From NCBI GenBank assembly GCA_041664285.1, contig JBAYLA010000001.1, positions 138,092 to 202,091 of the forward strand: 64,000 nucleotides of DNA, written 5' to 3'. The notes under the pieces were generated by a model that saw only the letters and a list, made by a program, of their open reading frames with translations, made no database searches and was not told where the DNA came from. Origin of the DNA: Minisyncoccota bacterium (GTDB taxonomy: Bacteria > Patescibacteriota > Minisyncoccia > Phycocordibacterales > UBA9973). Made by a program: the position numbers and the translations under genes. Below are positions 17,475 through 46,336 of the stretch, one piece after another (positions within the stretch are counted from its first letter, which is position 1; the number at the start of each line of letters is the position of its first letter).

Positions 17475-18209
17475 TTAGTAAAGATTATCTCTCCCAAATT
17501 GAATCATCGTTAAAACATGCCCCTTTCCATTGTGTCTAACCACTTTAGTTTTTATTTTCTTTTTCATTAACTCTGCAATTAATTCTTCTCCATAAATCGT
17601 TGGAATATAGAAATCATGTGTTGCTAAATGTATTTCAATATTTTCTGGTAGATTATCTAGATTTTCAATAGGATTGGTGTCAGCAAGCAAAGAATCATAT
17701 TGTTCTCCATTTTCAAAACCAAGTGAGACCGCTCTCTTTTTAATACACTGACTTGCCATTCCTTTATAGATACAAGCACCCAATTTTGAACCTGGAGTTA
17801 CCGCAACCAATTTATCAACATTAAAATGATTGGCAATATAAAAACTAGGATATGCGCCAATGCTTAGACTTAAAACATTAAAATTATTTAAATTTAACGT
17901 TTTCAGATCATCCACTAATCTTTTCAACAAAACAATGGCAACAGATGGATCAGGGTTAGCAACACCTATAGGACCTTCATATGTTATGACTCTGCCATTC
18001 TTAGGAATTAGACCTAATTGAAGAGCTTGTTTAAAATTAACTCTCCATGGCAAAAAACAGACCCAAGTAGGGGAATCTCCATTTCTAATATCTGTTCTAA
18101 AATAATTTTCATCTCCAATTTCTTTCTCTCTTGATCCACTATTCTTTTTTGCATAGATTTTATCTAGTAAGCCGTAATCTTTTATTTTTGATAATAAATA
18201 ATTAAGCAT
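17475..18209 (-). CDS. alpha/beta-hydrolase fold protein
   Basis: Nucleophile-elbow-like LSLSIGAY and a C-terminal HNGKGH block; 244 aa. Confidence 0.4.
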   Translation of the reverse strand: MLNYLLSKIKDYGLLDKIYAKKNSGSREKEIGDENYFRTDIRNGDSPTWVCFLPWRVNFKQALQLGLIPKNGRVITYEGPIGVANPDPSVAIVLLKRLVDDLKTLNLNNFNVLSLSIGAYPSFYIANHFNVDKLVAVTPGSKLGACIYKGMASQCIKKRAVSLGFENGEQYDSLLADTNPIENLDNLPENIEIHLATHDFYIPTIYGEELIAELMKKKIKTKVVRHNGKGHVLTMIQFGRDNLY

Positions 18210-18235
18210 ATGTTTCTCGTGCTAGCACTTGATGG

Positions 18236-18290
18236 TGACCCTAATTATACGGAATTGGAACTTTATTTTTAATCAAATAAAAGGATTTTC
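18236..18290 (+). repeat. 55-bp direct repeat, left copy; resembles a degenerate tRNA-Glu 3' end (att-like)
   Basis: GTGACCCTAATTATACGGAATTGGAAC...AATCAAATAAAAGGATTTT is about 85% identical to 18878-18934. It begins with GTGACCCTA, the same 9 nt as the 3' acceptor end of tRNA-Glu(TTC) at 25259. Confidence 0.6.
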
Positions 18291-18311
18291 TAAAATACAA
18301 TTTTATATATA

Positions 18312-18349
18312 AAAACAGAAGGCCTCGCATAGAACGAAGAGCGAGGCTC
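18312..18349 (-). terminator. Rho-independent terminator (minus strand)
   Basis: On the minus strand: GCCTCGC-TCTTCGTTCTAT-GCGAGGCC followed by TTCTGTTTTT. It lies 35 nt downstream of the stop of ORF 18384..18773. Confidence 0.6.
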
Positions 18350-18383
18350 CTGTCTGTGCGAGGCTTGATACTTGGAGATCTGG

Positions 18384-18773
18384 CTATGGGAGGTTCGTGG
18401 GAGGTTTCATGAAGGAGTAGCCTACGCTGAATCCTTGACGAAAAATGACTACCAGCTCGAAGGACGACTCCTTCATTCCTGGCTCGTAGAGGGAAAGATC
18501 CACGAAAATCTGGTTTATCCACTCGCTCAGTACGACTGTCATCCGGTTCGAGTTCCTGAAGACTGCCAAGAGATAATTCCTCTTAACGCCTTCGGGGCGC
18601 AGGTATTCTCCCAAGAAATCCTTGAACTTTTCGTCGATGTCGTCTTTCGCTCCGGTCATGTTCTGTATGAACGAGAACGGAAAGCTCGACGCACTTTTTA
18701 GGACTGGGCTATCTTTCCACGCATTCCACTGTACCCAGAGCTTCGGATCGATCGAAGTGTTGATCTTTTTCAT
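18384..18773 (-). CDS. hypothetical protein (129 aa) in a GC-rich (about 50%) 0.6-kb cassette
   Basis: It is the only ORF in the cassette whose orientation matches the downstream terminator. Its composition is foreign relative to the flanks. Confidence 0.4.
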   Translation of the reverse strand: MKKINTSIDPKLWVQWNAWKDSPVLKSASSFPFSFIQNMTGAKDDIDEKFKDFLGEYLRPEGVKRNYLLAVFRNSNRMTVVLSEWINQIFVDLSLYEPGMKESSFELVVIFRQGFSVGYSFMKPPTNLP

Positions 18774-18877
18774 AATTTTCCCTTTCTAAGGAAGGCTTAC
18801 TACGGCCTGTACGGGACCCGACGTTGTTGTCAGGTTGTCCGTTATATTTTTAACACTATTATTAGCTCGTGTCAATT

Positions 18878-18934
18878 TGTGACCCTAATTATACAGAATT
18901 GGAACCACATTTTCAATCAAATAAAGGATTTTGC
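18878..18934 (+). repeat. 55-bp direct repeat, right copy (att-like)
   Basis: GTGACCCTAATTATACAGAATTGGAACC...AATCAAATAAAGGATTTTG. Confidence 0.6.
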
Positions 18935-18988
18935 GTTTTAATATAAATTGCCCTTATCCTAAAATTAGTGTAAAATGAGCTCATAACT

Positions 18989-19246
18989 ATGGATGAAAAT
19001 TACAGAAGGGTAAAATTTAATGACGTTTTTGATGAGAAGCCCGATGGGTCTTTATCTCCCAAAGTACCCATTGAAATAAATGGCGTAAATTTTAATTCTG
19101 GAACCACTTTTTCCAAAGGGGTTGTTTTTGGTGGTATCGATTTTCACCTCTATAAGAATCGAGATATAGCAATCCAAAATTCTGAAGTACCTGAAGAAAA
19201 TACTGATAGTACTGTATTTCACATAGTTGGTTTTTATAAAGAATAA
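18989..19246 (+). CDS. hypothetical protein (85 aa), element-borne
   Basis: Track ORF; first of three tightly packed co-directional small ORFs. Confidence 0.35.
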   Translation: MDENYRRVKFNDVFDEKPDGSLSPKVPIEINGVNFNSGTTFSKGVVFGGIDFHLYKNRDIAIQNSEVPEENTDSTVFHIVGFYKE

Positions 19247-19251
19247 ATAGT

Positions 19252-19611
19252 ATGGCCGATAAAAATCCTACAAAAACTGAAATCCTAGGAACGGTACAAG
19301 CTCAAGCAGAAACTTTAAAAGAATTATCTGAGCGCCTTGTAAAGATTGAAGGTCAAACGGAAAAACAAGAATCAAGAAATCAAAACATAATATATGCGGT
19401 ACTTTTCGCGCTTGCATTTATCGTAGTAACTGTTAGTGTTGAAGTTATACTATCGAGTAAAAGTGATAATTCTGTCGCTAATGATTTTTCTGAAAAACTT
19501 TTCAATATACAAGAAAATACAAACAACAAAATGAATGGTTTACAGAGCACAATAAATAGTATTCAAAGTGAAATTTTATTATTAAGAGCAAAAAATCCTT
19601 ATTTAAAATAA
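19252..19611 (+). CDS. hypothetical coiled-coil membrane protein (119 aa), element-borne
   Basis: Track ORF with a central TM helix flanked by coiled-coil-like segments. Confidence 0.35.
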   Translation: MADKNPTKTEILGTVQAQAETLKELSERLVKIEGQTEKQESRNQNIIYAVLFALAFIVVTVSVEVILSSKSDNSVANDFSEKLFNIQENTNNKMNGLQSTINSIQSEILLLRAKNPYLK

Positions 19612-19613
19612 AT

Positions 19614-19898
19614 ATGAAATCATATACCGTTAGAATTGAATTGCAAAATTCTGTTTTGGGAGATTACGAATCTCTTCATGTCGCAATGGAATCCGCTGGC
19701 TTTAGGAAGTTTATTATTTCAGATCAAGGTATTAAATACAAACTTCCAAATGGGGAATATAATATTTCTGGTAATTTTGATAGGGCAACAATTTTATCTT
19801 TGGCGAAAAGTGCAGTTACAACTACAAATAAAACTGCAGAGATATTGGTAACAGAGTCAAGTGGACGAACTTGGGCTAATCTGAAAGTTATAAAATAG
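19614..19898 (+). CDS. hypothetical protein (94 aa), element-borne
   Basis: Track ORF starting 3 nt after the preceding stop. Confidence 0.35.
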   Translation: MKSYTVRIELQNSVLGDYESLHVAMESAGFRKFIISDQGIKYKLPNGEYNISGNFDRATILSLAKSAVTTTNKTAEILVTESSGRTWANLKVIK

Positions 19899-19908
19899 TT
19901 TATAGATA

Positions 19909-21072
19909 TTATCTATTTCCTTTTGCTCGATTATGCGTTTTGCACAACATCTCACAATTATTAAGCATTGTTTTGCCACCTTTACTCCAAGCTGATACAT
20001 GGTCGGCGTCCATATCCGAAATACTCCAAATCTTGTCTTTGTTTGCATCGTGTCCAATCGCACAGTGAGAGCAGTTTGAAATACCTTTTTTCTTTGCGAT
20101 AGCAGTTTGAGCTTCGTAAACTGAACGCTTAGTTGAATCCTCAAATATTCTTACTTCAAGTAGCTTTGTTTCAACTTCTCCACCTAAAACATATTCAAAA
20201 ATGCCTTTTCGACTTTTTACGAAACCATCGGCATAGAGTTTTTTAACCAAAGCAGAGACGGTAGTCGGATTGTATTTTTTCTTGTGGTAAGTTTCGTAAA
20301 GCCTGTTCCATTCCAAGCCTCTCATATCACTTTCAACTTCAGTAAATATGGTTGAAACCCAATCAATGACTGTGTTGAAATGCTTTTTTAGCTCTGTAAT
20401 ATTTGTATCCTTTCTATGCATGCTCATGTAGTTGTCGATTGCACCGCCAGAAACCCAATCTAAGGCCTGTTCCAAATATGCTTGGCGTTTGATATCACCA
20501 GCTATGTACGCGCTCCATTTATGGACATTAGCATTTTGGCTATTACTAAACTCTTCGCGCGCCTTGGTAACAAAAGTCCCAGAATAGACAGCGTTCAAAA
20601 TTTCCTGCTCGGTCAGTGGCACACCAGCGATATTGATAGTCTTGAACCAATCCTTGATTTCAGGTTCGTCGCCTTCACACACATACACTAGCAACTTAGT
20701 ATTCATTATCTGCTCGCGCTGGCTAGTAGCCATACCACTGTAGTATTGTTCATGACCATTTTTGTCTTTGACTGCAAACTTACCAGCCACAAACCGACCG
20801 ATGCTCGTAATGCGTTGCTGACCGTCTAGCACCTCAAATTTATCCTTACCAGCTTGATTGAAATAAATTAAACCAATAGGATATCCTTTTAAAATTGAGT
20901 CAATAACCGCGACATCTTTTTTGCCATCAGCATAAATGTAATTACGCTGATACTCTGGCTGAATAGTTAGTTTGCCAGAGAGACCAAACAAACCTTTTCC
21001 TTCGAGTTCATTGTAGACGAAACCGTCGCAAACTTCTTTAATGGTAATATCATTTTTTAAGGTTGTTTTCAT
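19909..21072 (-). CDS. DUF262 (ParB-like DGQQR nuclease/NTPase domain) fused to a C-terminal HNH endonuclease; GmrSD/SspE-like
   Basis: The N-terminal ...FEVLDGQQRITSI... block is the DUF262 hallmark. The C-terminal CSHCAIGHD...DADHVSAWSKGGKT...NCEMLCKTHNRAKGN is an HNH motif. Confidence 0.7.
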   Translation of the reverse strand: MKTTLKNDITIKEVCDGFVYNELEGKGLFGLSGKLTIQPEYQRNYIYADGKKDVAVIDSILKGYPIGLIYFNQAGKDKFEVLDGQQRITSIGRFVAGKFAVKDKNGHEQYYSGMATSQREQIMNTKLLVYVCEGDEPEIKDWFKTINIAGVPLTEQEILNAVYSGTFVTKAREEFSNSQNANVHKWSAYIAGDIKRQAYLEQALDWVSGGAIDNYMSMHRKDTNITELKKHFNTVIDWVSTIFTEVESDMRGLEWNRLYETYHKKKYNPTTVSALVKKLYADGFVKSRKGIFEYVLGGEVETKLLEVRIFEDSTKRSVYEAQTAIAKKKGISNCSHCAIGHDANKDKIWSISDMDADHVSAWSKGGKTMLNNCEMLCKTHNRAKGNR

Positions 21073-21073
21073 A

Positions 21074-22264
21074 TTATTTCTTTTTGTGTTTAATTAGAAC
21101 TCTCTGATAAACTTTTTCTCTTAATCCATCACGAATAACAACACCACTCGCATTTAAATCATATACTCCTTTTTTCCCAAACTTATCTAAGTATGCCTGC
21201 TTACATTCCGCTGATGTATAAAATTTGGTCTTTAAACTATAAAGATCTTCGTTTTCACACATTCCTACAATCTTAAACTGTTCAGGAGAATACTTATCAA
21301 GAAAACTAATTGGCACACCCATGATGCCTTTGTAATTACTTGGTATGTTTTTTACTAGCGATACTTCAATCGCATCGTAGTTTTCATATTTCTCAAACTC
21401 TTTATTTGTTGAGAACTTGATTACATCTGCTCCTGACATCAAGGGAATTGGTTGGTGTAGTCGTCCGTGATCAAGATTTGTAAACCAACGCACCCCTTGG
21501 ACTCTTGTTATATAAGTCTTTTTACCTTTTTTGTCAGTCTTAATTTCACGTACTTGATCTAAGTTTGCAACAGCTTCTGGAATCTCATAGAACATTGCAC
21601 CGCCATTAACCCTTGCATTGTTTCCGAGCCATACCTTATTCTCTTTGATCATTGGAAAAATTTCCTTATAAGTTATTGCATTGAGATTACCAATGATTAG
21701 AAATTGTTTTTTGTGCTCGAAAAGTTGCGTAATATATTCACGAAATAAACTAAATGGAGGATTAGTGACTACTATGTCAGATTGTTTGAGCAACTCGACA
21801 CATTCGTCACTTCTAAAATCACCTTCACCCTCAAGCGGAGTCCATTCGTTGTTTTTGTTAGTTCTAAGTTGCTTCGCGATATCTTCTAGCGTAAAAGAGC
21901 CGTCGCCGTCCATGTCACCAACTTCGTTGATAATAAATTTGTTGGCAGTTACTTTTGGACGACCTTTTGATTTAGTAAGAGTTTTATCATCGCCAAATAA
22001 TCCCAATTGCGTATTGGCTACAGGTGAGGGTTTGTAACTTGTAGTGATAAGTTGTTTAAGTCCTAGTTTGTCAAAATTAAGTACAAAATAGCGAAAGAAA
22101 TTACTTTCGAATGGGTCGTCGCAGTTGCTGTAAACCACCTTACCTTTAAAAGTATTTGAGTCATACTCAAGATAGGACTCTACCTCTTTTTGAATATCAG
22201 AAAATTGAGTATAAAACTCATCATTTTTTGCCCGTTTTGCATTTGTGAGATTTTTGTTCGCCAT
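21074..22264 (-). CDS. N6-adenine DNA methyltransferase (EcoRI-methylase-like family)
   Basis: N-terminal KNDEFYTQFSDIQKEV block and motif IV VVTNPPF. It lies immediately upstream of, and is co-transcribed with, the DUF262-HNH gene (1-nt gap). Confidence 0.6.
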   Translation of the reverse strand: MANKNLTNAKRAKNDEFYTQFSDIQKEVESYLEYDSNTFKGKVVYSNCDDPFESNFFRYFVLNFDKLGLKQLITTSYKPSPVANTQLGLFGDDKTLTKSKGRPKVTANKFIINEVGDMDGDGSFTLEDIAKQLRTNKNNEWTPLEGEGDFRSDECVELLKQSDIVVTNPPFSLFREYITQLFEHKKQFLIIGNLNAITYKEIFPMIKENKVWLGNNARVNGGAMFYEIPEAVANLDQVREIKTDKKGKKTYITRVQGVRWFTNLDHGRLHQPIPLMSGADVIKFSTNKEFEKYENYDAIEVSLVKNIPSNYKGIMGVPISFLDKYSPEQFKIVGMCENEDLYSLKTKFYTSAECKQAYLDKFGKKGVYDLNASGVVIRDGLREKVYQRVLIKHKKK

Positions 22265-22530
22265 ATGTATCCTAACTTATGTTGAGAATTATAGCTGTTT
22301 TGGTTCCAAATTGCTAATGGTATTGACGCCATGAAATAGTTTAATGCCTAACCTGTCTTTTGGATTGACTTTTCGGAAAAAAAAGTGTACACTGTTATGG
22401 TAATAACAAAGAAGTTATCACAAAGCAAGTTTGAGTCAAAAGAATTTTAGAGAGAACTGGGACATAACCAGTTTTTTTATTTTTTAGGGAGATAACTCTC
22501 TAAAAAAAACAAAACAACGCACGTTTTTTA

Positions 22531-22566
22531 AAGCCCTCTTGAGCGAAATCCCGAGAGGGCTTTTTG
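22531..22566 (+). terminator. intrinsic terminator-like hairpin (bidirectional)
   Basis: GCCCTCT-tgagcgaaatccc-gAGAGGGC flanked by a T-run and an A-run. Confidence 0.5.
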
Positions 22567-22619
22567 CGTTTCCGTGTGGGCGCAAAATGCGTAATGGGTT
22601 TCGTTCTTTATAGCCGTAT

Positions 22620-22720
22620 TTGTGGTCGTAGCGATATCAGATTAGTGGCTGGCCACTTGTCTATCGCAATTACGACCACGATCCAAGCTAGTCGCCACCC
22701 GCTTTAGCGGTGGCGACGTT
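22620..22720. promoter_or_regulatory. GC-rich hairpin cluster upstream of rep; candidate rolling-circle double-strand origin / nick site
   Basis: GTGGTCGTAGCGATA...TATCGCAATTACGACCAC forms an imperfect 15-bp stem with a GTGGCTGGCCAC palindrome in its loop. GTCGCCACCCGC-TTTA-GCGGTGGCGAC forms an 11-12-bp stem. Confidence 0.45.
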
Positions 22721-22774
22721 GGACGAGCGAAGCGAGTCCGTTGGACTTGATTATACCCACACTTAAAGAGAAAT

Positions 22775-23593
22775 ATGAAATCAACAAATAGAACAATGAT
22801 TATATCTGGCTCAACGATTGAGGCTTATCACTACAAGGAAAGTCCATTGTTTTATGATTACGAAGTGCCTAAGGTTAAAAAATATCCGATTTTAGTTATT
22901 GATGAAGAAAGTGCGCAAAGAAAAATTGAATCTAGAAAATCTTCACAACATCGCTCTCGTTCTGTATTGAGAAGATTGGTAAATACAAATGCGTGGAAAT
23001 GGTATAAGGCTAGTGGTATTCCTTTCATTCCCATTTTTCTAACATTCACATTTGCTGAAAATGTAAAAGATATTAAAGTTGCCAACCCTATTTTTTCTAA
23101 ATTTATTAAGAGATTTAATTATGAAATTACTGGACAAAAGAAAAGTTTTCTTAAGTATGTTGTTGTTACTGAATTTCAAGAGCGTGGGGCAGTTCATTTT
23201 CATGCCGTATTTTTTAATTTAAAACATATTTGGGTTGATACGCTTACTAAAATTTGGGGTCAAGGTTTTATTAAATTAAAGAAAATTAGCCATGTTGATA
23301 ATGTTGGAGCATATATTTCTAAATACATGGTTAAGCATTTTGAAGACGATAGACTTGATGGAAAGAAAAGATATTTTTCAAGTAGCGGATTGATAAAGCC
23401 GACAGTTATAAAAGATGAAGTAAAAGTTCTTCAAATAATAAAGCGTATACCGAAAAAATATCTTAAACATGAAACTGAATATGAAAGAAAACATAAAGGC
23501 AAGAAAATAGGCACCGTTGAATACGTGCAATACAAAATAGACAAGAAGGAGTCTATCTTTGACATTATTCCTGAACTCAAACAAATGCCATGA
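22775..23593 (+). CDS. rolling-circle replication initiator (HUH endonuclease superfamily Rep)
   Basis: Motif I FLTFTF, motif II GAVHFHAVFF (HUH), motif III GAYISKYMVKH (catalytic Tyr), in canonical order. Confidence 0.7.
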   Translation: MKSTNRTMIISGSTIEAYHYKESPLFYDYEVPKVKKYPILVIDEESAQRKIESRKSSQHRSRSVLRRLVNTNAWKWYKASGIPFIPIFLTFTFAENVKDIKVANPIFSKFIKRFNYEITGQKKSFLKYVVVTEFQERGAVHFHAVFFNLKHIWVDTLTKIWGQGFIKLKKISHVDNVGAYISKYMVKHFEDDRLDGKKRYFSSSGLIKPTVIKDEVKVLQIIKRIPKKYLKHETEYERKHKGKKIGTVEYVQYKIDKKESIFDIIPELKQMP

Positions 23594-23772
23594 TTACTCC
23601 TGCCGACTGCCGAAAAATTGACCCTGCTCTTGAAAGTAAAACTGATAAGGAATTACAGGAGGTTATTGAACTTTTGTATGGTCTTGGAGGACTTGCCCTT
23701 GAATCATATTTTAGCGGTTCCAAAAATCTCCGTGGGGTATCTAGACTTAATAATAGTGATGTGCCAAAGTAA
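23590..23772 (+). CDS. hypothetical small protein (60 aa) between rep and the recombinase; possible directionality factor (speculative)
   Basis: Track ORF overlapping the rep stop (ATGCCATGA). Confidence 0.25.
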   Translation: MITPADCRKIDPALESKTDKELQEVIELLYGLGGLALESYFSGSKNLRGVSRLNNSDVPK

Positions 23773-23776
23773 TGCT

Positions 23777-25297
23777 ATGAATACTACCGATACAAAAAAT
23801 GGTGTTATCTATGTCCGAGTTTCTTCTGCTGAACAAATAGACGGCACAAGTTTAGAATCCCAAGAAAGATTTTGCCAAGAATATGCCAAGCGCGAAAATA
23901 TAAATGTCTTAAAAGTTTTTATTGAAAAAGGTGAATCTGCTAAGACGGCAAATAGAACCGAATTTATTAAAGCCATTAGTTTTTGCTCTGAAAAGAAAAA
24001 TAAAATAGAGTGCTTTATCGTTTACAAAGTTGATAGATTTGCTCGCAGTCAATCAGACCATATTTCTGTTAAGGAAACATTGAAAAAATATAATACAGAA
24101 CTTCATTCTGTTACTGAACCTATTGGTGATAGCCCAATGGGTAAAATGATGGAGGGCATACTCTCTACTTTTGCAGAGTTTGATAACAATGTCCGAACAG
24201 AAAGAAGTGTTAATGGTATGAGAGAACGCCTAAAACAAGGTGTATGGGTCTGGCAGGCTCCTCTAGGTTATTACAGAACTTCACAGGGCGAAAACATTAG
24301 TCCTGATCCTAAATTTGCTCCCTATGTGGAACTTGCCTTTAATGAATTTGCTAAAGGAACTTATACTTTTGAATCTCTAGCGAACTTTTTAAATGAAAGA
24401 GGTTTTGTAACTAAATGCGGAAATAAAGCCACCCCTTCTTTAATGGATAAAATAATTAAGAATCCTCTTTATTGCGGAATAATTAAAGTCTGGGACATGG
24501 AACATAAAGGTAGTTTTAATTACATTATTTCGGAAGAACTTTTTAATAAATGTAATGGACGGAAGAAAAAAGAATATATGCCTCGTCTTGCTAAAAATTC
24601 TAATTTCCCATTAAGAAAGTTGGTGGTATGTGAATCTTGCCAGCATTCGCTTACAGGAAGCTCGTCTACGGGCAGAAAGGGCGTTAAATATCCTTATTAT
24701 CACCACCACAAACAAACTTGCCCTTCAGCTAAATTTATTCCAAAAGAAACATTTGAACAGTTGTTTGTGGAATATCTAGCCGATATTACTCCTAGCCCAG
24801 AATATGAAAAAGTATTTAAGGCTATTGTTGTTGATATTTGGAAGAATAATTTTAAGAAGTTGGACGAGCAGAATGAACAAGTGCGAAAAGAAATCAAGGT
24901 TTTTGAAAATCAAAGACAGCGTGTTTTTGAAATGCACCAATCAGGTGTATATTCTGATCAAGATTTTATAGCACAGAAAGATATTCTTAATAAAAAGATT
25001 GCCGAGAAGAAACTTTTGATTCACGAAAAGGCTGTAGAAGAATTTAATATGGACGAAGCATTAGAATATTGCTTTAACTACATACGAGAAACTTCTAAGA
25101 CATGGATTGAACTTGAAACTGAACCAGAGAGAAGATTACGGTTCCAAAAATTTATATTTGCAGAAAATTTAGGATTTTCTGGTGAAGAATTTGGAACCAC
25201 AAAATTAACGCCTATTTACAGCATGTATCAGCAATATTTGACTGAACCATCTTCACTTGTGACCCTACTGGGAATCGCACCCAGATTACCAGCTTGA
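23777..25297 (+). CDS. large serine recombinase / integrase
   Basis: N-terminal resolvase domain GVIYVRVSSAEQ (catalytic Ser) ...VYKVDRFARS, a recombinase domain, zinc ribbon CESCQHSL...YYHHH, and a C-terminal coiled coil. Start taken at the ATG encoding MNTTD. The 3' end overlaps tRNA-Glu. Confidence 0.85.
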   Translation: MNTTDTKNGVIYVRVSSAEQIDGTSLESQERFCQEYAKRENINVLKVFIEKGESAKTANRTEFIKAISFCSEKKNKIECFIVYKVDRFARSQSDHISVKETLKKYNTELHSVTEPIGDSPMGKMMEGILSTFAEFDNNVRTERSVNGMRERLKQGVWVWQAPLGYYRTSQGENISPDPKFAPYVELAFNEFAKGTYTFESLANFLNERGFVTKCGNKATPSLMDKIIKNPLYCGIIKVWDMEHKGSFNYIISEELFNKCNGRKKKEYMPRLAKNSNFPLRKLVVCESCQHSLTGSSSTGRKGVKYPYYHHHKQTCPSAKFIPKETFEQLFVEYLADITPSPEYEKVFKAIVVDIWKNNFKKLDEQNEQVRKEIKVFENQRQRVFEMHQSGVYSDQDFIAQKDILNKKIAEKKLLIHEKAVEEFNMDEALEYCFNYIRETSKTWIELETEPERRLRFQKFIFAENLGFSGEEFGTTKLTPIYSMYQQYLTEPSSLVTLLGIAPRLPA

Positions 25298-25330
25298 AAA
25301 GCTGATGTCCTAACTATTAGACGATAGGGC
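25259..25330 (-). tRNA. tRNA-Glu (anticodon TTC); integration target
   Basis: Reverse complement GGCCCTA-TC-GTCTAATAGTTAGGAC-AT-CAGC-TTTTCAA-GCTG-GTAAT-CTGGGTGCGATTCCCAG-TAGGGTC-A. Confidence 0.8.
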
Positions 25331-25656
25331 CAAAACAGTTAATATCATACCATTTTTTGAAAAAATCGCAAAAATCTTGCAATTATAAAAATTTTATTTT
25401 ATAATAAAACCATGGCAAAGAAAGTTAATTATATGAATACAGCTTGGTGGACGACTCACATTTGTGGGTAGTCTTTCGTTGTATCTATAATTATCTCTAA
25501 AAACAACAACACGCAAGATACCCACAGAAAAGTGGGTTTTTTATTTGTTATTTAATTTTAAGATGAATAAATTTATTTTTAAAAATCATTGTACGGAGTT
25601 CTGGCAATAATAAACATTGTGCAGTTTTCTTATTATTATCTTAAAAATTAAACTAT

Positions 25657-26862
25657 ATGAATAAAAAAATAAAATCATTAAAAAATTTACCAGATGCAAA
25701 TGGCTATTATGGACAATTTGGGGGAAGTTTCGTTCCTCCTCAGTTAGTAAAACCATTACAAGAAATAGAAAGGGAATACAAAAAGGCAAAGAAAGATCCG
25801 AGCTTCCAAAAAGAATATTCTGACTTGCTTAAGAATTATGTTGGCCGTCCTTCTCCGTTATATTTTGCAAAGAATTTAACAAAAAAGCTCGGAGGAGCAA
25901 AAATCTATTTCAAACGGGAAGATTTGAATCACACTGGGGCTCATAAAATAAATCACTGTTTAGGAGAAGTTCTACTAGCAAAAAGAATGGGGAAGAAAAA
26001 AGTCTTAGCCGAAACTGGGGCAGGACAGCACGGAGTAGCCTTAGCCACGGCTGCTGCCTTGCTTGGTTTAGAGTGTGAAATTCACATGGGCTCAATAGAC
26101 ATAGCGAAACAGCATCCAAATGTTATTCGTATGAAATTGCTTGGAGCGAAAGTCTTCGATGTTTCAACTGGAGGAAAGTGTCTGAAGGACGCTGTGGATA
26201 GTGCTTTTACAACTTTTATGAAGGAATATAAAACTACTTTCTTTGCCATAGGGTCTGTCGTCGGACCGCATCCGTATCCTATGATTGTGAGAGATTTTCA
26301 ATCTATTGTTGGGAAAGAAGTAAGAGAACAAATTCTACAACAAGAAAAAAGATTACCAGATTATATTATCGGTTGTGTTGGTGGTGGCTCTAACGCTATT
26401 GGATTATTTCATGAATTTCTTGATGATAAAGTGAAATTAATCGGCGTGGAGCCAGCAGGCAAGGGGACAGGAGTTGGGCAACATGCCGCTACTATTTCTT
26501 ATGGTTCTATGGGGGTACTTCATGGAATGAAAACAATTGTCTTGCAAAATAAAAAAGGTGAACCAGATCCCGTTCACTCTATAGCTTCGGGATTAGATTA
26601 TCCTGGGGTTGGGCCTATCCATGCTTTTCTGAAAGATATTGGAAGAGTTAACTATACTTCAGCGACTGACAAAGAGACGATTAACGCTTTTCTTGAATTA
26701 TCAAAAGTTGAAGGAATTATTCCTGCCCTAGAAAGTGCTCACGCCATAGCCGAGGCAATGAAGTTAGCACCTACTCTAAGTAAAAATAAAATAATTGTTG
26801 TCAATATTTCAGGGCGAGGAGATAAAGACGTTGATTATGTTGCTGAGTTATTAAAAATATAA
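25657..26862 (+). CDS. trpB: tryptophan synthase beta-chain family protein (stand-alone; no trpA in the window)
   Basis: [13 protein letters not shown]...HTGAHKINH...GAGQHGVA...[11 protein letters not shown] beta-family motifs. Confidence 0.85.
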
Positions 26863-46211: not shown

Positions 46212-46283
46212 GTGACTCTACTGGGAATCGCACCCAGATTTGAAGCTTGAGAAGCTTCCGTCCTAACTATTAGACGATAGAGC
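46212..46283 (-). tRNA. tRNA-Glu (anticodon CTC)
   Basis: Reverse complement GGCTCTA-TC-GTCTAATAGTTAGGAC-GGAAGC-TTCTCAA-GCTTC-AAAT-CTGGGTGCGATTCCCAG-TAGAGTC-A. Confidence 0.8.
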
Positions 46284-46336
46284 CAATAAAAAAAATATAG
46301 CATTTTTCAATAAAAAACTAAAGAAAAATTTAAAAG

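Follow-up and report, generated by a model that had tools for sequence, protein, structure and literature searches.

A probable integrative rolling-circle replicon with a large serine recombinase at the 3′ end of tRNA-Glu in a Candidatus Paceibacterota genome

We analyzed a 64,000-nucleotide stretch of DNA from a Minisyncoccota bacterium (GenBank assembly GCA_041664285.1, contig JBAYLA010000001.1, positions 138,092 to 202,091), hereafter the window, and found that positions 18879-25267 very probably form an intact integrative rolling-circle replicon of 6.38 kb inserted at the 3′ end of tRNA-Glu(ttc). From left to right the element carries three small open reading frames (ORFs), a Type II restriction-modification (R-M) pair, a GC-rich origin region, a HUH Rep, a 60-aa ORF and a large serine recombinase (LSR) (Table 1). 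An earlier sequence-only reading of the same DNA had proposed that a bacterium of the candidate phyla radiation (CPR) carries, integrated at tRNA-Glu, an element that has a serine integrase and a rolling-circle Rep. The host is indeed a CPR bacterium, being a Candidatus Paceibacterota metagenome-assembled genome, and the integrated element was upheld by comparison with about 100 related loci, which were gathered and scanned by script; the family rules given below are those seen on contigs long enough to display them.

The ends of the element are defined by its attachment (att) sites. Two direct repeats lie at 18235-18288 and 18879-18932 (85% identity ungapped, 89% gapped); the sequence-only reading had recognized them with coordinates off by one. 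Both open with GTGACCCTA, which is the tRNA 3′ end in reverse complement, and their alignment with that end confirms that the repeats and the tRNA are related through this core. The pattern of core and arm, GTGACCC-N9-RGAATTGGRAC, occurs twice in the window and not once in 100 shuffles. The repeats had been taken for att remnants left by two tandem integrations. They are att-type ends, more precisely the left end of the element present twice, and more than one integration-type event is borne out by the related loci. When sequence upstream of the elements was searched for the tRNA end, the left ends of 11 elements were found to consist of the core, 8-9 nucleotides of any sequence and then GGAATTGGAAC, and left-end cores across the family span 7-9 bp (GTGACCC, GTGATCC, GTGGACC or GTGC). 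In locus L005 the base preceding the core differs between the two junctions, and in locus L037 it is the fifth base of the core that differs; because these comparisons differ on either side, the crossover is placed within GTGN. The crossover thus falls at the extreme 3′ end of the tRNA, and therefore the tRNA body is host DNA and the 3′ trailer alone changes. This does not agree with the earlier view that the element carries a replacement tRNA 3′ half, as only 7-9 bp are shared. Restoration of an encoded CCA by the host flank at 18235 was considered and set aside as a weak argument, since the paralogous tRNA-Glu(ctc) has none, and dyad symmetry between the P and P′ arms, sought by eye, was not convincing.

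In plus-strand reading, the motif T[CT]G[ACG]A[AC]C of the tRNA T arm begins at a distance of 17 nt from the start of the core in the tRNA and of 21 nt in the P arm. All seven elements in which this spacing was checked agree, a tRNA-Ser member among them, and the T-arm-like motif consequently sits 4-5 bp further out in the element arm than in the tRNA. For LI integrase, the outer motif is 5 bp closer to the centre in attB than in attP (PMC3783163), and the outward shift seen here matches that rule at the level of sequence. The short att sites, central crossover and attB motif nearer the centre that typify serine integrases are all found in the sequence. In the mechanism that we propose, the T arm of the tRNA would act as the host half-site, mimicked by TTGGAAC in the element arm, and the LSR would exchange strands in GTGN, thereby joining the site on the circle to the very 3′ end of tRNA-Glu(ttc). 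The predicted attB reads ...GCTAGCACTTGATG-GTGACCCTA-CTGGGAATCGCACCC, and the predicted attP would read ...CCATCTTCACTT-GTGACCCTA-ATTATACAGAATTGGAAC via the inner left end or ...ATTATACGGAATTGGAAC via the outer one. Depending on the left end used, circles of 6.4 or 7.0 kb would be expected (7.02 kb if the outer junction at 18235 is used).

Because the universal T arm is the half-site, close relatives change target by changing the core alone. The target is tRNA-Glu, with anticodon ttc or ctc, whenever the LSR is at least 62% identical to that of the window; slightly more distant LSRs target tRNA-Ala or tRNA-Lys(ctt), and those with 24-32% identity target tRNA-Gln, Ser, Val or Lys(ttt). A second tRNA-Glu (ctc) of the window, at 46212-46284, has a T arm identical to that of the occupied gene and no insertion, and its end reads GTGACTCTA (core GTGACTC) where tRNA-Glu(ttc) has GTGACCCTA. 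This gene constitutes a natural test of core specificity.

The LSR has the domain architecture of a phage-type serine integrase. Its catalytic N-terminal domain matches PF00239 (Resolvase, 5.9e-32, residues 10-157), with a YVRVSS motif that aligns with the catalytic region of PDB 3guv, and is followed by matches to PF07508 (Recombinase, 5.4e-12) and PF13408 (zinc ribbon, 7.6e-07). Homology extends to residues 84-455 of SPbeta SprA and to the TP901-1 structure, and a coiled coil appears to lie C-terminal to the catalytic domain, as judged from the protein sequence. As the earlier reading had stated, the recombinase ORF runs into tRNA-Glu, where its stop codon lies 39 nt inside the tRNA gene. 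The GTG of the core is LSR codon 495, and codons 495-506 (12 residues) are read from the antisense strand of the tRNA. The same arrangement is found in 29 related loci, this being the number in which a complete LSR meets a tRNA, and in contig L002 of the same genome: the LSR ORF runs 13-175 nt into the antisense tRNA. On the other side, all eleven left arms stay open for at least 20 codons in the LSR frame, as in VTLIIQNWNHIFNQIKDFAF followed by a stop or in VTQVVRNWNRIIKEIAEWKHF..., and those of distant clades for 15-33 codons. Since the crossover lies inside the LSR frame, integration swaps the last 20-25 residues of the protein; the circular form would encode an LSR of 514 or 519 aa, with the final 20-25 residues supplied by the opposite end of the element.

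Junctions of the circular type exist in relatives. Three independent assemblies (L181, L182 and L183) contain a contiguous P′-core-P junction with a 532-aa LSR that ends in ...MVMYYYPLHELILNKMKANLTLDFCY and a stop, without a tRNA, and in L185 a 523-aa LSR, 33% identical to that of the window, crosses GTGACCC into the arm of the next element and ends in ...HWVTLSGSNWNRIVENIRVFKVLN and a stop. The P arm shows a weak codon-position bias, with 238, 209 and 261 differences at codon positions 1, 2 and 3, and TTGGAAC, the best-conserved DNA motif of the arm, is read in different frames in two clades, which is why we regard it as a DNA signal and not as a peptide motif. On both counts we make no claim of a conserved LSR tail peptide. 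A functional role for the tail, or for the 60-aa ORF upstream of the LSR gene, can at most be inferred. This small ORF was detected by tblastn in 39 of 39 loci that cover its position and have an LSR at least 62% identical to that of the window (36-95% identity); Pfam, PHROG, PADLOC and further family searches returned no family match for it. It is a candidate directionality factor or accessory protein.

The best sigma70-like match within 18200-25700 lies in P arm copy 2 (Table 1). A weaker site is present in P arm copy 1 (18244-18272, minus strand), and the arm of L037 contains TTGAAA-17-TACAAT. Such sites point toward the neighbouring gene in the integrated state and would be antisense into the LSR gene in the circle. 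Together, a crossover inside the LSR gene and a promoter in the arm could amount to a built-in state switch, and a lax half-site may permit the capture of small units; we put this forward tentatively, as a speculation more likely wrong than right. Under such a switch, the circle would make an integrase with the far-end tail while meeting an outward promoter antisense to the integrase gene, and the integrated form would make the tail-swapped enzyme while the arm promoter drives the neighbouring gene. The direction or level of recombination would then be set without a classical directionality factor, or beside one. A lax second half-site would mean that small recombinase-less gene units are captured at the element end in a somewhat integron-like manner.

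The Rep matches PF23343 (REP_ORF2-G2P) with E = 5e-21 and 75.3 bits (cutoff 27.8), and profile searches also returned rolling-circle PHROGs; no Rep structure gave a detectable sequence match. The motifs FLTFTF, HFHAVFF and YISKY, already singled out by the sequence-only reading, fall in invariant or nearly invariant columns of a 40-sequence alignment, in which H141, H143, Y180 and K183 never vary and conservation of Y184 is 90% or higher. Two GC-rich hairpins 5′ of rep (22621-22717; DNA fold z = -5.85 versus shuffles) had been proposed as the origin. Both hairpins are real; the first, longer one is not conserved, and what relatives retain is the second (22691-22717) together with an invariant motif. 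The first hairpin belongs to an 83-bp insertion that is missing from locus L013, although the L013 core module is 92% identical in DNA to that of the window. This palindromic insertion may represent a mobile palindrome of small size or else a single-strand origin. In the LSR-bearing relatives that were folded, a GC-rich hairpin lies 10-25 nt 5′ of the motif (weaker in L022 and L043); stems vary, and a GCTTTAGC loop recurs. The hairpins at 22691-22739 are probably the Rep-binding or extrusion part of the origin.

Ten elements aligned 5′ of rep share an invariant GTTGGACTTGATTATA(N3)ACACTTAAAGAGAAA up to the rep start codon, GTTGGACTTGATTATA corresponding to 22740-22755, and in 55 of 92 loci, among them Rep-only circular contigs sized 1.1-3.7 kb, TTGA[TC][TA]ATA stands fewer than 120 nt 5′ of rep. 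The conserved CTTGATTATA motif thus adjoins rep and recurs on Rep-only circular contigs; it probably overlaps the rep promoter and ribosome-binding site. The phiX174 origin reads CAACTTG/ATATTAATAAC and the pC194 nick site CTTG/ATA, the slash marking the cut. The family motif ACTTGAT(T)ATA, followed in the mini-circles by ATTAATAA, resembles both, and phiX174 gpA shares with the window Rep the HUH motif and a YxxKY tyrosine pair. On the strength of this resemblance and of the phiX174-type YxxKY pair, we infer that the nick is likely to fall between 22749 and 22750, in the invariant CTTG/ATTATA at 22746-22755. Unlike the phiX174 and pC194 origins, the predicted site abuts the rep start codon and may double as a promoter. 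After excision, Rep would nick CTTG/ATTATA 5′ of its own gene, in a cleavage substrate predicted to carry GGACTTGATTATA, and the circle would be copied by the rolling-circle route.

Relatives of this Rep include circular Rep-only contigs of 1.1-2.1 kb, recognized by terminal overlaps, that leave little room beyond a Rep 38-45% identical to that of the window. Most of the small circles that were checked carry the AACTTGATTATA...ATTAATAA motif. The small circular whole contigs are L042, L048, L050, L055, L058, L059, L064, L065, L076, L080, L083, L086, L088, L089, L091, L092, L097 and L098.

A word-filtered search found 256 relatives of the Rep at E ≤ 0.001, of which the named ones are all Parcubacteria or Patescibacteria, and a full profile search returned 1000 clusters (50% identity) at E ≤ 1e-30. 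The gene order Rep, small ORF, LSR is found in the collected loci on every contig long enough to show it. At least 24 contigs, in several host contexts, carry the element with Rep P0002. Two of its copies, L003 and L005, share 99.9% identity from the left core up to and including the tRNA, with similarity beginning exactly at the core and unrelated flanks, and one copy is at tRNA-Glu(ttc) and the other at tRNA-Glu(ctc). Judged by these sequence comparisons, relatives of the window element are demonstrably mobile. Another relative, L037, is a 6.8-kb element between tRNA-Leu(tag) and tRNA-Lys(ctt); these two tRNA genes are adjacent in the window itself (709-927), with a 62-nt spacer and no insert, providing an empty-site analogue for L037.

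The cargo had been described as a methyltransferase (MTase) paired with a DUF262-HNH protein, which Pfam domains confirm, and PADLOC scores the pair as a Type II MTase and restriction enzyme. Such an R-M cargo would probably defend the host and stabilise the element. The nuclease has 279 members in its 90% cluster, and a homologous pair (76% and 87% protein identity) is found without Rep or LSR in another Patescibacteria locus (L179, 8811-11164). A prophage-like gene run lies near the R-M pair in L179. Similarity between the window and L013 ends at about 22277, beside the MTase start codon, and the cargo to the left of that point is unrelated; cargo has thus been swapped between core modules that are 92% identical in DNA. 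Other R-M genes carried by relatives are NgoPII with a C5 methylase, NgoFVII, or HinP1I, and the three small cargo ORFs of the window are absent from the related elements compared. An independent assembly of the same genome (ENA ERZ27249449; L001 and L002) breaks inside the MTase gene on both contigs, which near-identical R-M copies in other community members may explain.

To the left of the element, the duplicated end encloses a GC-rich 644-bp unit with a GC content of 47-50%, an orphan 129-aa ORF (18384-18773, minus strand) and a terminator-like hairpin (18323-18339). The ORF has no homologue or family match, and the unit has no Rfam match and, in a domain scan, encodes no recombinase. It is flanked by two cores with a P arm on the left, and its right end is unlike a P′ arm. 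A structured RNA is a possible reading of its fold (z = -3.96), and was dropped as unsupported. The unit resembles a cis-mobilizable or decayed element and would be a module without a recombinase, either older or captured, enclosed by the two element-end copies. A similar organization is seen in L073 (5908-6910), a distant member at tRNA-Ser(cga) in which two 44-nt left arms, 100% identical, surround a 958-bp unit holding two small membrane-protein ORFs, mirroring the duplicated arm of the window. L026 (6281-8922) contains a 2.6-kb LSR-less unit between LSR and tRNA, and hybrid junctions occur in L020 (5372-5826) and L185 (5600-5700). In the tandem arrays of L026, L020 and L185, the LSR gene of one element continues past the core and into another unit's arm. 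[quoted passage not shown]

Table 1. Positions of the features of the element and its surroundings in the window
Feature	Position	Strand	Remarks
attL1 (outer left junction), core GTGACCCTA	18235..18243	+	Exact repeat of tRNA 3′-end core; host DNA to left
P arm copy 1	18235..18312	+	Carries T-arm mimic GGAATTGGAAC; in frame with LSR as VTLIIRNWNFIFNQIKGFSKIQFYI, then stop
Recombinase-less unit, 644 bp	18235..18878	.	Orphan 129-aa ORF and terminator-like hairpin
attL2 (inner left junction), core and P arm copy 2	18879..18941	+	In frame as VTLIIQNWNHIFNQIKDFAF, then stop
sigma70-like site TTGAAA-17-TATAAT	18916..18888	-	Inside P arm copy 2; reads outward across core
Three small cargo ORFs (85, 119 and 94 aa)	18989..19898	+	119-aa ORF with one transmembrane helix; last matches phrog_8894, YmfI-like
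DUF262 (GmrSD_N) + HNH nuclease, putative Type II restriction enzyme	19909..21072	-	PADLOC REase_II 7.5e-85
EcoRI-family adenine MTase	21074..22264	-	PF13651 1.4e-121; PADLOC MTase_II 7.5e-101
Palindromic insertion, 83 bp	22610..22692	+	Holds hairpin 1 (22621-22679); missing from L013
GC-rich hairpins at conserved position	22691..22739	+	GTCGCCACCCGC-TTTA-GCGGTGGCGAC, then GGAC...GTCC
Invariant motif GTTGGACTTGATTATACCCACACTTAAAGAGAAAT	22740..22774	+	Predicted nick CTTG/ATTATA, between 22749 and 22750
HUH rolling-circle Rep, two tyrosines	22775..23593	+	HFH and YISKY motifs
60-aa ORF	23590..23772	+	Conserved; translationally coupled to rep
LSR, 506 aa in integrated form	23777..25297	+	Resolvase, Recombinase and Zn_ribbon_recom domains
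attR (right junction), core GTGACCCTA	25259..25267	+
tRNA-Glu(ttc), host target	25259..25331	-	ARAGORN; Rfam 61 bits; T arm = GGAATCGCACC on + strand, proposed B′ half-site

Several observations weigh against an intact, mobile replicon. For the window's own element, searches turned up neither an empty tRNA-Glu site nor a circular junction. Homologues of the 244-aa gene left of 18235 lie in unrelated contexts in other Patescibacteria; a scan of genome contigs through this protein gave five relatives, none with tRNA-Glu or trpB nearby and without synteny, and exact look-ups of the flanking proteins returned the same genome alone, with the same integrated layout. L181 (7.3 kb) does not close into a circle, its ends having no overlap, and the 644-bp unit has a right end that does not derive from an LSR. 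The case for rolling-circle replication of LSR-bearing elements comes from homology and from the Rep-only circles, and the invariant motif beside the rep start codon could be simply a promoter and ribosome-binding site. An exact look-up of Rep for excised forms also found nothing, and a word-prefiltered search with a chimeric "excised-form" LSR C-terminus gave five integrated-type fragments only.

These observations have to be set against the alternatives. The missing empty site or junction, together with the divergence of the arms (85% identity), which indicates a site old enough to have gathered changes, would suit a fixed, immobile genomic island, a relic in which the recombinase and Rep are silent or domesticated. 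We consider this unlikely: none of Rep, the 60-aa ORF and the LSR is truncated and the catalytic motifs are intact, near-identical relatives are found at different loci, and the core matches, at 92% identity, that of a relative whose cargo differs, which implies recent exchange. The window's own copy is presumably still active. The HUH protein could in principle act chiefly as a relaxase at a transfer origin, not as a replication initiator, in an integrative mobilizable element (IME) that helper machinery moves; the integration module of such an element is present. The kinship of HUH Reps with relaxases and the use of Rep-type relaxases by some integrative elements (PMC5704250) speak for that possibility, as do type IV secretion system pilin genes near one relative (L007) and the lack of transfer genes in the element, which must pass from cell to cell in some other way. 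It is nonetheless quite improbable given that the same Rep family and nick-like motif make up the whole coding content of many 1.1-2 kb circles, which must replicate by Rep, and that the element contains no coupling protein or mobilisation accessory gene.

The sequence-only reading had also likened the element to a single-stranded DNA phage. A prophage of a small phage of the inovirus, plectrovirus or microvirus type, replicated by Rep and integrated by the serine recombinase, would account for the best Pfam and PHROG matches of Rep, which are families named from phage proteins, for the phage family phrog_8894 (YmfI-like) matched by the 94-aa ORF, and for the single, coat-protein-like transmembrane helix of the 119-aa ORF. 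Pfam and PHROG searches of the element ORFs revealed no Zot/pI ATPase, capsid, morphogenesis or other virion gene. The small ORFs are missing from every related element, and the relative with a 92%-identical core carries wholly different cargo. IMG/VR holds no close Rep relative (the best has 47% identity over part of the protein), and the family includes Rep-only circles of 1.1-2 kb, too small for viruses. We therefore regard a phage origin as highly improbable, and retain the integrative rolling-circle replicon as our interpretation.

Among known systems, this replicon is alike in kind to the integrative and conjugative elements of actinomycetes (AICEs) such as pSAM2, which measure about 11 kb, integrate at tRNA 3′ ends, excise as circles and use a rolling-circle HUH Rep (RepSA). 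AICEs have a tyrosine integrase with Xis and FtsK-like transfer genes, whereas the window element resides in a CPR host and has a serine recombinase as its sole recombinase; Pfam and PHROG searches found no FtsK/SpoIIIE-type transfer or spread domain in any ORF of 18235-25297, and its Rep scores 29.9 bits against RepSA PF20199, below the cutoff of 34. With the phage-type LSRs (A118/LI, TP901-1, SPbeta SprA, Bxb1 and phiC31) it shares the Resolvase/Recombinase/zinc-ribbon set, the short core and the attB spacing, and differs from them in that the element-side site lies inside the recombinase gene, so that integration alters the C-terminus. In SSV1-type integrases and in mycobacteriophage integration-dependent immunity, the att site also lies inside a gene of the element, and integration splits or truncates the product. 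Those systems use tyrosine integrases, and the whole SSV1 integrase gene is split and the mycobacteriophage repressor truncated; here, the exchange is confined to the final 20-25 codons of a serine integrase gene. In IMEs, site-specific serine recombinases usually have their targets within protein genes (PMC5704250), in contrast to the tRNA 3′ ends targeted by this family with the universal T arm as half-site. Finally, in CIME and tandem accretion (ICESt1/ICESt3; PMC5704250), units that are flanked by att sites and lack a recombinase likewise form a tandem with a complete element at a shared tRNA end. The described cases involve tyrosine integrases and conjugative elements, while the units found here measure 0.6-2.6 kb and their tRNA-proximal ends are not recombinase-derived.

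Beyond the right end of the element, two hairpins lie at 25440-25545, between the tRNA-Glu promoter region and trpB, one of them terminator-like (25520-25537, followed by a T run). They could be a trpB leader or attenuator; Rfam gave no match.

In the literature searched, neither this element family nor a serine integrase gene that runs across its own attachment site was found described. The components are individually of known kinds; what is new is their combination, the targeting of the tRNA T arm and the split integrase gene. An integrase with a C-terminus rewritten by integration is unusual, and the regulatory hypothesis attached to it is directly testable in vitro. Our results further imply that serine integrases can be systematically aimed at tRNA genes via the universal T arm, closely related enzymes switching between Glu, Ala and Lys targets by a 7-bp core change, and that R-M systems travel among Paceibacterota on such elements. 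The 1.1-2.1-kb Rep circles would rank among the smallest autonomous replicons known. To our knowledge, very few mobile elements have been described in CPR bacteria (Patescibacteria), for which almost no genetic tools exist. The family offers a minimal replicon (Rep and an origin motif of about 35 bp), a serine integrase, a predictable tRNA 3′-end target on the chromosome and short, defined att sites, which are the parts needed for integrative or shuttle vectors in these bacteria.

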